This document shows positions 43,345 to 47,757 of a stretch of DNA of 64,000 bases, piece by piece. The stretch is from contig CAVRQT010000003.1 in NCBI GenBank assembly GCA_963723515.1, positions 192,001 to 256,000 on the forward strand, written 5' to 3'. The DNA is from Vulcanimicrobiota bacterium (lineage in GTDB: Bacteria; Vulcanimicrobiota; Vulcanimicrobiia; Vulcanimicrobiales; Vulcanimicrobiaceae). The notes under the pieces are model-generated. The model saw nothing but the letters and a program-made list of their open reading frames with translations. It did not search any database and was not told where the DNA came from. Both the position numbers and the translations under genes were made by a program. The first letter of the stretch is position 1; every line of letters begins with the position of its first letter.

Positions 43345-44504
43345 TCAGCGCACGACGCCGAGCTCGAAACCGAAGCGATCTTGATCGGCGTTCGTGCCGC
43401 CTGCACTGAAACCAAGCCCCGCGGTAAACGAAGTGAGCCGAACGTGAGAGTACTCAAACCGCAAGACGCCATAATTTGCAAAGTGGTATGCCGGCGTCAG
43501 TGTTAAGGAAAGTGCCGAGCTGCCCGGACCGAAACCGATTAAGTCTGCGTTACCGCTGTGAGTCCGTCGTAGAGCTGTAATTCCAGACGCTTTCAAACCG
43601 AAATGCAAGTGAGAACGGCGTGCTCCATGCGTACGTGCCCATCAACACAGCTGCCATCGCATTTTCACTCGCGAGTGTAGCCAAGTGAAGATGATGCCGG
43701 CGAATGCACCCACAGCATGTACGGTAGCAACTGCAGTTTCCCGAACTGCCGCGTCAACATCAAATCGTATTCAGCTTTGTTGCCGATCGCGACAGTTGGA
43801 TTGGGGCCGATGTTGCTTCCGGGAACGATACCGGCAAACTGAACGCTCGTATCGGACGATGGGGACCATCCAACGAGCCACTCGATCGCGCGATTATGAC
43901 CGGAGTAATAGGCATCGTTCGCCTCAAGCGTCGCCGTCCATGGGCCACGTGCGTAGATCGCGCGCACGCCGCGGCTTATTGTCGGCTCCATCGTCCACGC
44001 AAGCCCGCGTTGCACGTTGATGTTCTGGTAGGTCATCGGCGACTCTTGACCGAGCAACGAGGCAAATTTTCCGGCTGCAAGACTGAAGTGGCTATCGAAG
44101 TTGTACTGGGCGGCAACAACAGGCAACTGCGAATAGAGCAGTGTATTGGCGCCGCTTTGCGTGCTCTGGTTGATCGCTTCTCCGACCGTTAAGAGGTTGT
44201 AGACGCCGGCGCTTGCAGTCACGCGAAACCGCGCACTACCGGCGGATATGTTAAGAAGAAGATCCGAGATGTCGCCGCGACCGGCCCGATCGCTTCCAGA
44301 CGGCGTATCGAGCGCGCCGGTGTTGTTCACCCCATCGGTGTGAAATCCGAAAATCGTGAACGCGCCGCCGATGATGAGCGGTGGCATTGGCGTCGGAAGC
44401 TCCAGCGGTGTGGGGCTTGGTGATGGAGCTGGCGTTTGTGCGATCGCCGGTGCCGTGATCGCCGCTGCGATCAAACAGACGAAGATAAGAGTGAGTCGGT
44501 GCAT
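43345..44504 (-). CDS. outer-membrane beta-barrel porin (BBP2-like; frameshifts near 43670 and 43560)
   Basis: Signal peptide MHRLTLIF, PSPSPT linker, GKFASLLGQES..YQN.N, EP...RG, LTLTP, RFEY. Confidence 0.75.
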
Positions 44505-44607
44505 TCTGCCCTCGAGTCTAGCGCGAACGCTCGCTTCCCGGTATCCGTCAAACGGATGATCCAAATGGATATGGGTGACACGGAATAATGGCGCGAACGT
44601 ATAGCGC

Positions 44608-45180
44608 ATGATTGAGTGGATGCATGATTTAGACGCTGCTCTTCAGCGTGCCCGCGAGGAAGAAAAACTCGTCTTGGTCGATGTCTTCAACCCTGGCTGA
44701 GGGGGCTGCAAAGCGTTGGATACCGTGACGTATCCTCAGCCGCCCGTCGTGCAAGTAATCACAGAAAACGCCATTCCCGTTCAATACGACAATTCGAAGA
44801 AAGAGAATGTCGAGGTTCTCAAGCGGCTCCATCACATTTGGACGCCGGATGTGCGAGTTCTCGATGAGAGGGGCGCGGAGCTCTACCGTTGGGACGGCTT
44901 CCTCCCGCCGCCGGAATTCATCGCGCGAGCATTATGCGGCTTCGGGCAAGCGCATTTGCGCCGGCGAGAGTTTGAAGCGGCCGAAAAGCTCTACATTGAC
45001 GTGCTGACGCGCTTCTCGACGACCTATGCGGCTCCCGAAGCGCTCTACTACTTAGGCGTGACGAGGTATCGCAAGAATCCGCTCGGCAACGATCTGCTCG
45101 ACCAGTGGGCCCATCTGCGCGAGCGCTATCCGATGAGCGAGTATCGCGTCAAGCAATCGTTCAAAGAACTGCCGGAATAG
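44608..45180 (+). CDS. thioredoxin-fold plus TPR-like protein, putative selenoprotein (UGGC)
   Basis: MIEWMHDLDAALQRAREEEKLVLVDVFNPG-TGA-GGCKALDTVTY is in frame with ORF 44716-45180; WTP loop; TPR-like C-terminus. Confidence 0.8.
44701..44745 (+). promoter_or_regulatory. putative bacterial SECIS element
   Basis: GGATAC-CGTGAC-GTATCC hairpin with the loop starting 23 nt after the TGA and G at loop position 2; lower stem GGCTG/CAGCC. Confidence 0.6.
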
Positions 45181-45186
45181 TTGACG

Positions 45187-46483
<1,297 letters not shown>

Positions 46484-46502
46484 GGAGAACGAACGCCGCA
46501 TT

Positions 46503-47757
46503 ATGCGAGGCGCAAGCGCAGTCCTATCCCGCAAAAGCGGCTTCGATGTCGAGCAGTTGCTGCCGCCGCAGCAGGCAATCATCACTTTCTTGTCGCGCGC
46601 GGCCCTGCGGCCGGCGCGACGCGAGCGCGTGAATCTGGATGAAGCATCGGGTCGCGTACTCGCCGCCGATCTTATTGCGGATCGCTGCTATCCCGATGCG
46701 CCTCGTTCGACGATGGACGGCTACGCGATTCGTGCGAGCGACGTCCCCGCGGCCTTGCGCATCGTCGACGAAATTCAGATCGGACGTCTCCCTGCGCGTC
46801 GCATTATCCGCTTTGGAGGCAGCGCGCATTCCGACCGGCGGCCTCTTGCCTGTGGGAAGCGACGCCGTCGTTCCGTTTGAGCGCGTCGTCCTCGACGGTG
46901 AGACGATTCGGATCGAGGACGCGGTAGCCGTGGGCGACTGCATCACTCCGCGCGGCGAAGATATAAAGGAAGGCGAGCTGCTCTTTCGCGCCGGCCGGCG
47001 CATCGGTGCAGCGGAGGCCGGGGTCTTGGCGACGCTAGGCCGAGGGCAGATCGAGGTCTTTGCACGTCCTCGCATTGCGGTCGTTTCTTCCGGCGATGAG
47101 CTCGTCGATCCGCAGGCCGATCCCCAACCGGGCCAGGTCCGCGATTCAAATCGCTATGTGATTGCGGCGGCTTTGAGAGCGATGGGAGCCATCGCGACGC
47201 ACTATCCTACCGCGCGCGACCGTGAAGGCGCCTTGGAGGATATTTTGCGTGCCGCGCTCGCGGACAACGATGCGGTCATCGTCAGCGGTGGTTCTTCGGT
47301 CGGAGAACGCGATCGCACGCCCGTTGCAATTGCGGCGCTCGGAGAGCCCGGCGTTATCGTGCATGGCTTGCGCGTCAAGCCAGGCAAACCGACGGTGCTC
47401 GCCGCTATCGACGGTAAACCGATCGTCGGCTTGCCCGGAAATCCAACGTCCGCGCTGATGATTCTCGAGACCGTAGGGGCCCCGATTATTGCGGCAATGA
47501 CCGGCGCGCATCTCATCGAACGCCAAACGGGAGCCCAACTGGAGCAAACCGTGGAGAGCCGAGCGGGTTGGACGTCGTTCGTTCCCGTCGCTCTTTCGCA
47601 AGATGCAGTGCCCTTTCGAGCGCAGCCGCTCGCGATGCACTCGTCGCTGACGAGTTTGTGCGCGCGCGCCGACGGTTTCATCGTCGTCGACGAGGAAACC
47701 AAACGCCTCGAGCGCGGTGCAGCCGTGCGCGTCTATCCGTTTACGAGAGGTTGGTAG
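46503..47757 (+). CDS. moeA: molybdopterin molybdotransferase (frameshift near 46790)
   Basis: SMDGYA-like STMDGYA, IPTGG, SSGDEL, DSN, SGGSSVG, KPGKP, LPGNP. Confidence 0.93.

Follow-up and report, generated by a model that had tools for sequence, protein, structure and literature searches.

The window analysed here, a stretch of 64,000 nucleotides, carries on its plus strand a gene of 190 codons that runs from an ATG at 44608 to a TAG stop at 45178-45180 (44608..45180) and contains an in-frame TGA. Read from the ATG (44608-44610), the N-terminus is MIEWMHDLDAALQRAREEEKLVLVDVFNPG, after which come the TGA (44698-44700) and the codons GGG GGC TGC, so that read-through translation yields a U-G-G-C redox motif within a product of 190 residues. 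In this translation the candidate selenocysteine (Sec) codon is residue 31 and opens the motif (44698..44700, plus strand), and the TGC codon at 44707..44709 (plus strand) supplies Cys 34, the putative resolving residue of the UxxC motif. Of 57 aligned sequences, 56 use TGC for codon 34 and one uses TGT, and C34 is almost invariant in the alignment of Cys and Sec forms of the family. Close downstream of the TGA lies a hairpin (44718..44735, plus strand) that also encodes the peptide (L)DTVTYP, and the read-through protein is predicted to consist of a DsbD-gamma-like thioredoxin-fold domain (residues ~3-106, 44614..44925, plus strand) followed by a helical, YbgF/CpoB-like TPR domain (residues ~106-187, 44923..45168, plus strand). 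The table-11 ORF list begins the gene at a TTG (44716..44718, plus strand), which appears to be the false start of a shortened 154-aa ORF. No obvious Shine-Dalgarno sequence was seen before ATG 44608 in the window gene. A first-pass annotation of this DNA had already described the frame from ATG 44608 with its TGA at the first position of UGGC, the hairpin and the ORF start at TTG 44716, and all of these were found where it had placed them.

All 61 of 61 orthologous loci, of which 58 are distinct, have TGA at this very codon. So do all 80 of 80 loci of a diverse metagenome set, recruited by a degenerate peptide pattern that leaves the Sec codon unspecified. Complete proteins are encoded at 68 of these 80 metagenome loci; their identity to the window protein ranges from 26 to 85% (median 36%), and at 60% identity they group into 29 clusters. 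Strong matches spanning the codon were obtained in the source genome itself and in 12 of 40 relatives, and all of them (13/13) contain TGA. The frame 5' of the TGA is open and conserved at the 61 orthologous as well as the 80 metagenome loci. Among 150 representative homologues, the Sec column is occupied by Cys in 58 proteins of at most 260 aa and in 17 longer ones, and 51 calls begin just past this column. The residue carried by homologues at this codon, which the first-pass annotation had singled out for checking, is consequently either TGA-encoded or Cys. Contiguous Cys forms of ~190 aa exist, and a Geobacteraceae Cys form (P0350) matched the window protein over its full length, with 34% identity over 182 of 190 residues (E = 1e-36).

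These counts bear on the possibility that the TGA arose by nonsense mutation or through faulty assembly, the gene being then a pseudogene or an artefact. Frame errors do occur in this assembly, since serS is split at ~45586-45592 and the 3' end of selD shifts frame, and one orthologue (G032, L033) is frameshifted mid-gene. However, the errors seen in the assembly are indels and not substitutions, as had been remarked in the first-pass annotation for lesions elsewhere in the window, the TGA recurs at all 61 and all 80 independent loci over many assemblies and lineages, and the sequence downstream of it is under strong purifying and RNA-level constraint. Mutation or artefact is therefore of negligible probability and appears effectively refuted by conservation.

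In the databases the gene is nearly always represented by its 3' part, as had been anticipated from the ORF list: in a search with the window protein, the best 120 of 382 database homologues measured 143-156 aa and spanned 75-81% of its length, and with a Thermodesulfobacteriota-type member as query, calls of ~150 aa likewise made up most of the best 120 of 1432 homologues. These short products go under the names 'tetratricopeptide repeat protein' or 'hypothetical protein' and include one RefSeq isolate entry. When Sec and Cys forms were scanned against NCBIfam, every model stayed below its cut-off on both. The peptide encoded by the hairpin, [DG][TA]VTY[PSA], is present in 32 of 38 assessable shortened calls vs 1 of the 58 Cys forms of at most 260 aa.

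That the ~150-aa form is reported almost everywhere by gene callers and NCBI, the RefSeq isolate entry included, would be expected if the TGA were a true stop, the ~150-aa TPR-like protein being the functional product and the 30 upstream codons a leader peptide or untranslated. The Met found six residues past the TGA in many lineages, where the window gene has TTG 44716, would be in keeping with this view as well. Against it, the 30 upstream codons are kept in frame at 141 loci, down to 26% overall identity, and they provide the first strand and the first helix of the thioredoxin fold together with the first redox residue; the short product would lack the active site and half of a fold that is modelled as a single unit at pLDDT 97. 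Moreover, Cys forms of ~190 aa are contiguous across this position, and three published members have been accepted as selenoproteins. Termination at the TGA is consequently considered very unlikely.

The hairpin is formed by the stem GGATAC (44718-44723), the loop CGTGAC (44724-44729) and the stem GTATCC (44730-44735). The loop starts 23 nt past the UGA, and its second nucleotide is a G. In the 57 aligned sequences, all 342 of 342 cells of the upper stem pair, and the 13 variant stem cells consist of 12 G-U changes and one double compensatory change. With so little variation in the stem, true covariation is scarce, and the observed covariation score was matched by 13 of 500 column shuffles. 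Conservation and covariation of the hairpin had been proposed as a check, and the element proved to be conserved, with variation that preserves pairing. At the codon level, codons +3 to +11 have a mean normalised synonymous entropy of 0.078, the lowest of all sliding windows, whereas 24 other conserved columns average 0.726 (Mann-Whitney p = 6.7e-6).

Selection on the encoded DTVTYP peptide itself may account for part of the stem conservation. This cause is disfavoured because the synonymous stem sites are fixed: the three free synonymous sites of the stem are identical in 240 of 240 instances in the metagenome set, a set itself picked using the DTVTYP-region peptide. The two free loop sites vary in the same set, which contains CGTGAC in 62, AGTTAC in 15, GGTTAC in 2 and GGTGAC in 1 of the loci. 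The minimum free energy (MFE) fold of the window sequence has an energy of -19.7 kcal/mol (z = -1.25), and 20 of 200 shuffled sequences are equally stable; the folding energy of the single sequence is thus unexceptional and the significance of the element arises from the comparison across loci. In this fold the apical hairpin is surrounded by an extended lower helix (44699..44748, plus strand) that includes GGCTG (44704-44708) paired with CAGCC (44737-44741). The first-pass annotation had coupled this lower stem to the hairpin; the apical hairpin stands, with every cell paired, and the lower stem does form in the MFE fold, but its conservation is partial, with 72.6% of cells pairing and the pairs 14-49 and 15-48, two of its ten, mostly broken.

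According to the published bacterial SECIS model, the apical loop has 3-9 nt, the upper stem 4-16 bp and the spacing 16-37 nt (Fig. 2 legend, PMC13188914), with a G at loop position 1-2, usually followed by G or U, and an MFE of at most -7.5 kcal/mol (PMC13188914). The window hairpin has a loop of 6 nt that starts C-G-U, a stem of 6 bp, a spacing of 23 nt and an MFE of -19.7 kcal/mol, all within these limits. A search of positions 44550-44850 against Rfam gave no meaningful match, the two hits at E 2.9 and 8.5 being noise.

The presence of selA, selB, selC and selD in the genome had likewise been named as a check, and all four were detected above their cut-offs. The tRNA-Sec, with anticodon TCA, scored 69.4 bits vs a cut-off of 47, and selA 506.6 bits, above its cut-off. 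Adjoining selA, selB is marginal at 244.4 bits vs 242.25, its match containing a TAG; selD scored 357.9 bits, above its cut-off, and is itself of the Sec type (...CAGUASK...). In addition, selA is above cut-off in 13 of 13 genomes with the TGA form. As a stop codon, TGA ends 26 of the 57 long open frames of the window, and 21 of 57 orthologues of the selenoprotein gene itself terminate with it; the genetic code is therefore not reassigned.

The same observations weigh on the idea that the UGA is read as Trp, Cys or Gly, by a reassigned code or by near-cognate suppression, with no selenocysteine involved. Some database entries (P0297, P0315, P0339 and P0131) do show W at this position; the simplest account of them is gene calling with a code in which TGA=W. 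Reading as a standard amino acid is at odds with the use of TGA as a terminator in these window frames and orthologues, with the complete Sec machinery and a second Sec-type gene, selD, with the conserved hairpin that fits the SECIS model at the expected distance, and with the position being that of the redox Cys in the Cys forms. It is accordingly held to be exceedingly unlikely.

At the protein level, the read-through product was modelled with AlphaFold2 (AF2) at a pLDDT of 97.4 over the whole chain, the domain junction included, and a pTM of 0.92. Pfam models Thioredoxin_7 (4.4e-11), Thioredoxin_2 (1.7e-8) and Thioredox_DsbH (1.4e-6) all matched above cut-offs, PF13098 reaching 35.2 bits and PF13899 43.2 bits vs a cut-off of 27 for each, and TPR_16 scored 23.7 bits, under its 32.7 cut-off. 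Searched against the PDB, the family profile retrieved DsbD-gamma (~6e-15), YbgF (2xev, E = 2e-14) and CpoB (6g5s, 9.4e-10), the YbgF match bearing out the earlier description of the C-terminal half as TPR-like. Foldseek aligned the model with the C-terminal domain of DsbD at a target-normalised TM of 0.74-0.76 and an rmsd of 2.2 A, and the C-terminal half of the AF2 model is made of helices at residues 101-118, 122-135, 142-156 and 162-173. A two-domain architecture, a DsbD-gamma-like thioredoxin domain joined to a YbgF/CpoB-like TPR, can thus be proposed with confidence from the model. No membrane segment is present in the AF2 model of the 190-aa protein, and the protein is probably cytoplasmic, as no hydrophobic N-terminus is seen in its sequence.

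Three features place the window gene, as judged from its sequence, within the described 'Thiol:disulfide interchange protein' selenoprotein family and not in a new one: its thioredoxin domain, the position of the predicted Sec and its colinearity with published members. The thioredoxin domain is of the PF13098/DsbD-gamma type, DsbD-gamma being the top structural and PDB-profile match and PF13098 the Pfam listed for this family in reviews of 2022 and 2026, and the predicted Sec opens a UxxC motif (U31-G-G-C34). The family was first reported in Geobacter about twenty years ago; the passages of the 2022 and 2026 reviews that list it credit it to Kryukov & Gladyshev 2004, Zhang et al. 2006 (PMC1794560, supplementary file 4) show its sequences from Geobacter metallireducens, G. 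uraniumreducens and Syntrophus aciditrophicus, and the same family appears as 'Trx-like 2', cd02953, in the GOS paper (PMC2398784). The published members share with the window protein the length of ~185-190 aa and the two-part architecture, and, by eye, the ...(L/V)DxFNPGUxGC... context followed by D[AT]V[AT]YP and a C-terminal ...YP.SE(W/Y)..., the motif as printed being FFNPGUxGC...D[AT]V[AT]YP (Zhang et al. 2006, PMC1794560). Colinearity with these members is indirect, in that P0350 is colinear, again by eye, with the printed G. uraniumreducens sequence over long identical stretches. The window protein differs from them in its motif (U-G-G-C vs U-I-G-C) and in its host, which belongs to Eremiobacterota (Vulcanimicrobiota; Baltobacteraceae-type MAGs), whereas the three members of 2006 are from Deltaproteobacteria; its identity to the Geobacteraceae form is ~34%. 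Since the family was published in 2004-2006, the novelty implied in the first-pass annotation by the word 'hidden' does not hold.

Other known systems resemble the window protein in part. The gamma domain of DsbD (PDB 2fwe, 2fwf, 1vrs, 1uc7) is the best structural match for residues ~1-116 and has a CxxC-type active site at the equivalent place; it is, however, the periplasmic end of a three-domain membrane electron transporter of ~570 aa, whereas the window protein is free-standing, with a predicted Sec and an attached TPR domain and with neither membrane domain nor signal peptide. Identity with full-length DsbD was rejected, NF001419 reaching 37.5 bits vs a cut-off of 330 over positions 460-567 of 574 only. 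Of the solved structures, only the 'chaperedoxin' YbbN/CnoX (PDB 3qou, 3qdn) could be aligned with the two halves together, thioredoxin then TPR, at ranks 14 and 18 of the Foldseek matches; it is longer (~285 aa) with a larger TPR domain. Assignment to CnoX/YbbN was also rejected, on the basis of an rmsd of 9.8-11.4 A, a query-normalised TM of 0.38-0.40 and 13-15% identity, the order of the domains alone being common; the Pfam and NCBIfam scans gave no sequence-family match to it. Finally, the Thioredoxin_7-type selenoproteins VPGUxxT (NF041383, NF041382) and Trx7/PDZ (NF041199) have a similar N-terminal region with a -PGU- context, but only the first ~90 residues align with these models and the C-terminal domains differ. 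They were set aside with 38.2 bits vs a cut-off of 275 for NF041383 (model positions 5-99 of 287 only), 13.9 vs 350 for NF041382 and 11.6 vs 300 for NF041199.

Taken together, the comparative sequence data make it almost certain that the in-frame TGA genuinely specifies selenocysteine, in the gene of a small redox protein of thioredoxin-like type. The selenoprotein part of the proposed Sec oxidoreductase is supported by the conservation of the TGA, the constraint on the SECIS, the Cys homologues and the Sec machinery, and we give a probability of about 93% to the full reading of a 190-residue selenoprotein of a known family, in which a hairpin SECIS specifies UGA as Sec and a thioredoxin domain is joined to a TPR domain. 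From this we infer Sec insertion, SelB binding, oxidoreductase activity, a cytoplasmic location and a role for the TPR. The UGA at 44698-44700 would be decoded as selenocysteine, with the hairpin at 44718-35, inside the coding sequence, serving as bacterial SECIS; SelB carrying Sec-tRNA(Sec) would bind the apical loop and deliver Sec to the ribosome stalled at the UGA. The Sec would replace the attacking N-terminal Cys of a CxxC thiol:disulfide oxidoreductase (U31-G-G-C34), whose thioredoxin fold is predicted to pack on the short TPR domain, which would most likely bind a substrate or partner. In the rest of the genome, and where it ends many orthologues of this gene, UGA is an ordinary stop.

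A more speculative extension, which we regard as improbable, combines two proposals in a single claim. The protein might be a Sec-dependent CnoX-like 'chaperedoxin', or a dedicated cytoplasmic reductase with a YbgF-like TPR that recruits a specific client; and the SECIS, unusual in being near-identical across phyla, might force D-T-V-T-Y-P onto the Sec forms only, which would make the family a natural, portable 'SECIS cassette'. The GGAUAC/GUAUCC stem is invariant across the 29 protein clusters, down to 26% identity to the window protein. If this extension were true, an RNA element would dictate protein sequence over a long evolutionary distance, or would mark the repeated horizontal spread of the Sec form. 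Neither cross-phylum invariance of the SECIS nor a TPR domain is mentioned in the literature examined on the family: neither 'TPR' nor 'tetratricopeptide' appears anywhere in the reviews of 2022 and 2026 that list it, and no TPR or thioredoxin family is mentioned in the sections consulted of the deep-Sep paper (PMC12013277).

The biology of the preferred reading, a Sec-containing thioredoxin-like protein, is little surprising, as a UxxC thioredoxin-fold selenoprotein is expected in a Sec-decoding soil bacterium. What is new here are the Eremiobacterota members, the evidence from shortened entries, the NCBIfam gap and the two-domain model. A literature search combining 'Eremiobacter...' with 'selenocysteine' found no paper, and Eremiobacterota would join the phyla having thioredoxin-fold selenoproteins. 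One of the earliest bacterial selenoprotein families to be predicted by computation is still shortened almost everywhere in databases. With a dedicated HMM and the very regular SECIS (TGA, 17 nt, GGAUAC-NGUNAC-GUAUCC), annotation pipelines could recover hundreds of such genes.

Regarding the genomic neighbourhood, serS lies downstream of the selenoprotein gene in convergent orientation. This arrangement, together with a porin neighbour, recurs at 2 of 60 loci only, L023 and L052, both of which represent a single contig from the same genus, and a functional link to serS was rejected as confined to this relative. The adjacency is considered coincidental because it is seen in the same-genus relative only, in agreement with the reservation expressed when it was first pointed out. 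A search of sequencing runs matched one soil-metagenome run, with 12% of the sampled words, whose contigs span 45179-45400 only, on the serS side; no RNA run matching the sampled sequence was found in this search. Within flanks of 1.5 kb no conserved operon partner was detected, the commonest flanking frame being present at 16 of 58 loci. Many of the flanking frames are shadow ORFs of GC-rich DNA.

The gene at 44608-45180 (+) runs from ATG 44608 to TAG 45178-45180 and translates into 190 residues, its N-terminal frame from the ATG up to the in-frame TGA reading MIEWMHDLDAALQRAREEEKLVLVDVFNPG. The TGA (44698-44700) is followed by GGG GGC TGC, giving U-G-G-C, and the table-11 ORF list calls the gene from TTG 44716 as a 154-aa ORF. 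These features were found in the sequence as the first-pass annotation had described them, as was a putative SECIS hairpin on the same strand (stem GGATAC 44718-23, loop CGTGAC, stem GTATCC 44730-35), whose stem begins 17 nt and whose loop begins 23 nt past the UGA. We regard 44608-45180 as a real selenoprotein gene with a probability of roughly 93%. The longest ORF of a divergent OmpL-like porin gene, 43665-44609 (-), overlaps ATG 44608 by two bases; the true porin start probably lies further inside this ORF, since the Pfam match starts at residue 82 only.

Strong matches to the gene were recovered in 13 of 41 genomes (that of the organism itself and 40 relatives), all 13 with a stop inside the match, and weaker matches of 23-32% identity, lying inside long open frames, were other thioredoxin-domain proteins. 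The 41-genome tallies, for the gene as for selA, take in three unpublished genomes (G020, G022 and G036), none of which supplies a TGA-bearing orthologue. A contig scan yielded 48 further loci, almost all of which carry an Eremiobacterota or Vulcanimicrobiota label (Baltobacteraceae, Cybelea, Rubrimentiphilum), and the U codon was TGA in 61/61 loci (58 distinct), in the context F-[NSK]-[PN]-[GTH]-U-G-G-C. One of the 48 (L079, DATJUC010000266.1), an orthologue that shares 68% identity and has the same hairpin and TGA, comes from a MAG labelled Candidatus Acidiferrales, a label that none of the other 47 carries; its placement could be mis-binning or horizontal transfer. The orthologue at G032:C2:301281-301845 (L033) keeps the TGA and hairpin and shows a mid-gene frame change with two match pieces, a sign of pseudogenisation or of an error in the assembly.

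Of the 57 open frames in the window that span 250 codons or more, 26 end in TGA, which is also the terminal stop of 21 of 57 orthologues and of 25 of the 71 metagenome homologues with a visible end. TGA is thus otherwise an ordinary stop and a reassigned genetic code is therefore excluded. The organism decodes Sec: the search for selA, selB, selC and selD proposed in the first-pass annotation matched each of them above cut-off in its assembly (2.11 Mb, 4 contigs, 88% complete), with tRNA-Sec at 69.4 bits (cut-off 47; ARAGORN tRNA-SeC, anticodon TCA), selA at 506.6 bits, an adjoining selB barely above its cut-off (244.4 against 242.25 bits) with a TAG within the match, and selD at 357.9 bits. 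The selD product reads ...SSCAGUASKLG... and is itself a selenoprotein, UxxK being the form given for Sec-type SelD in the 2022 and 2026 reviews. The selB match (G000:C2:432826-434673; L011, L016) is accompanied by a short additional piece read in a different frame, which together with the TAG is possibly a further frame error. The 3' end of selD (G000:C2:780199-781126; L019, L021) likewise runs on in another frame, as a second match piece spans model positions 264-310, and another assembly indel is probable. In the 41-genome set, selA was above cut-off in all 13 TGA holders and in 38 genomes overall, and the two relatives without a selA match (G003 and G005) were also without the gene; this co-presence is a matter of consistency and no test, because the genomes are mutually related.

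The minimum free energy fold of 44698-44750 (-19.7 kcal/mol) includes both the hairpin and the lower helix proposed around it in the first-pass annotation. This fold is unexceptional for one GC-rich sequence (z = -1.25; 20/200 shuffles equally stable), and the case for a SECIS therefore rests on comparison. Across 57 distinct sequences, synonymous variation was nearly absent at codons +3 to +11 past the UGA (TGC CAA GCG CTG GAT ACC GTG ACG TAT). Mean normalised codon entropy there was 0.078, with no sliding window lower, whereas a further 24 conserved columns averaged 0.726 (Mann-Whitney p = 6.7e-6). The six stem pairs were paired in 342/342 cells, and of the 13 variant cells 12 had changed on one side to a G-U pair and one had a compensatory double change from A-U to G-C (in G014, a relative), so that conservation in relatives, on which the earlier proposal had been made to depend, was observed for the TGA and the hairpin alike. 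Formal covariation of the stem was weak (13/500 shuffles attain the observed score) because the stem is so conserved. The lower helix kept its pairing in 72.6% of cells only, with 2 of its 10 pairs mostly broken. The bSECIS model, as quoted in the 2026 review (PMC13188914), has a loop of 3-9 nt, an upper stem of 4-16 bp, a spacing of 16-37 nt, a G at loop position 1-2, mostly then G or U, and MFE <= -7.5 kcal/mol; the window hairpin agrees with every criterion quoted there.

Beyond the phylum, the peptide G-C-x-x-[ML]-D-T-V-T-Y-P, back-translated degenerately so that every synonymous site and the U/C codon stayed free, was used to scan metagenomes, and 80 of at least 120 matching stretches were retrieved. 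The U codon was TGA in 80/80 loci and the three free synonymous stem sites held the pairing base in 240/240 cases, a set picked by peptide and hence without peptide-altering hairpin variants; the two free loop sites varied (CGTGAC 62, AGTTAC 15, GGTTAC 2, GGTGAC 1). The 68 complete proteins shared 26-85% identity (median 36%) with the window protein, fell into 29 clusters at 60% identity and carried U-x-G-C motifs in which x was G, I, S, L, M, R, A, H, N or K.

HMMER, run exhaustively against 1.84 billion representatives, recovered 3092 homologues at E <= 0.001. Among the best 150, Cys stood at the U column in 58 homologues of <= 260 aa and in 17 longer ones, 51 gene calls started immediately past this column, 10 had another residue (4 S; W, N, Q, E and L once each) and 15 were partial entries; Cys or TGA in homologues, the first check envisaged, was thus seen in both forms. 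Of 38 truncated calls that could be assessed, 32 contain the hairpin-encoded peptide [DG][TA]VTY[PSA], compared with a single one among the 58 Cys forms of <= 260 aa; constraint of the protein by the RNA element is thus confined to the forms that use Sec. In four entries (P0297, P0315, P0339 and P0131) Trp occupies the Sec column (NPGWIGC..., NPGWGGC...), for which the simplest explanation is gene calling on metagenome contigs under a TGA=W code; the first three retain the Sec-type DAVTYP peptide and P0131 (DSSVYP) does not. A Geobacteraceae cluster at 90% identity (P0350) joins full-length Cys forms (185-197 aa) and 149-aa truncated calls, which suggests a very recent Sec/Cys interconversion within one lineage. 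A second thioredoxin-like match in the organism's genome (G000:C2:547910-548119; 31% identity over residues 2-71), in a 196-aa stop-free open frame, is a possible Cys-type paralogue within this family.

The thioredoxin fold with a TPR-like domain, as first proposed, was borne out by Pfam (Thioredoxin_7, Thioredoxin_2 and Thioredox_DsbH above cut-offs at residues 2-106; TPR_16 below cut-off at 112-156), by an AF2 model from a 40-sequence alignment (pLDDT 97.4, pTM 0.92) displaying a thioredoxin fold and then four long helices, and by family-profile matches to DsbD-gamma (~6e-15) and YbgF/CpoB TPR domains (2e-14 and 9e-10). Foldseek ranked the gamma (C-terminal) domain of DsbD highest (target-normalised TM 0.74-0.76, rmsd 2.2 A), and YbbN/CnoX were the sole solved structures spanning both halves, with a loose fit (rmsd 9.8-11.4 A). 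No hydrophobic N-terminal segment was seen on reading the translated sequence, and the protein is therefore probably cytoplasmic. It would act as a thiol:disulfide oxidoreductase in which Sec31 attacks and Cys34 resolves, and its TPR domain would bind the client or partner.

The 2022 and 2026 reviews list a 'Thiol:disulfide interchange protein' selenoprotein (PF13098, UxxC, representative WP_011366075.1), credited there to Kryukov & Gladyshev 2004. Zhang et al. 2006 (PMC1794560) place the family in Geobacter metallireducens, G. uraniumreducens and Syntrophus aciditrophicus, the three sequences in supplementary file 4 being ~185-190 aa long with ...LLDFFNP[GN]UIGCK[QT]MDAV[AT]YP... and a C-terminus ...YPDS[EP]W..RA.PY.LL. 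Judged by these motifs, the window gene plainly belongs with them, and it is a further member of a known family; the link runs via the Cys form P0350, which aligns with the window protein over 182 residues (E = 1e-36) and is colinear, compared by eye only, with the printed G. uraniumreducens protein. Modestly new are the Eremiobacterota members, a single literature search having found no paper with both 'Eremiobacter...' and 'selenocysteine', a SECIS that stays nearly identical from phylum to phylum and leaves its imprint on protein sequence, the TPR domain, on which both reviews are silent (0 occurrences of 'TPR' or 'tetratricopeptide'), and the scale of mis-annotation. Truncation by standard annotation, anticipated for this 154-aa ORF, extends to homologues called at 143-156 aa (best 120 of 382) and to those of a UIGC-type member, mostly ~150 aa too (best 120 of 1432), including RefSeq WP_307632970.1 from cultured Thiovibrio. 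Also among the new points, no NCBIfam model attains its cut-off on Sec or Cys forms.

The neighbours in the window are the OmpL-like porin, serS, a GST-like protein and MoeA, none of which is kept beside the gene. The most shared flanking frame occurred in 16 of 58 loci, and serS and the porin recurred in 2 of 60, being one contig retrieved twice, in keeping with the initial caution that serS adjacency may be coincidence. The serS gene, 45187-46585 (-), is broken by a frame shift into two ORFs (45593-46585 and 45187-45585), most likely through an assembly indel since serS is essential.
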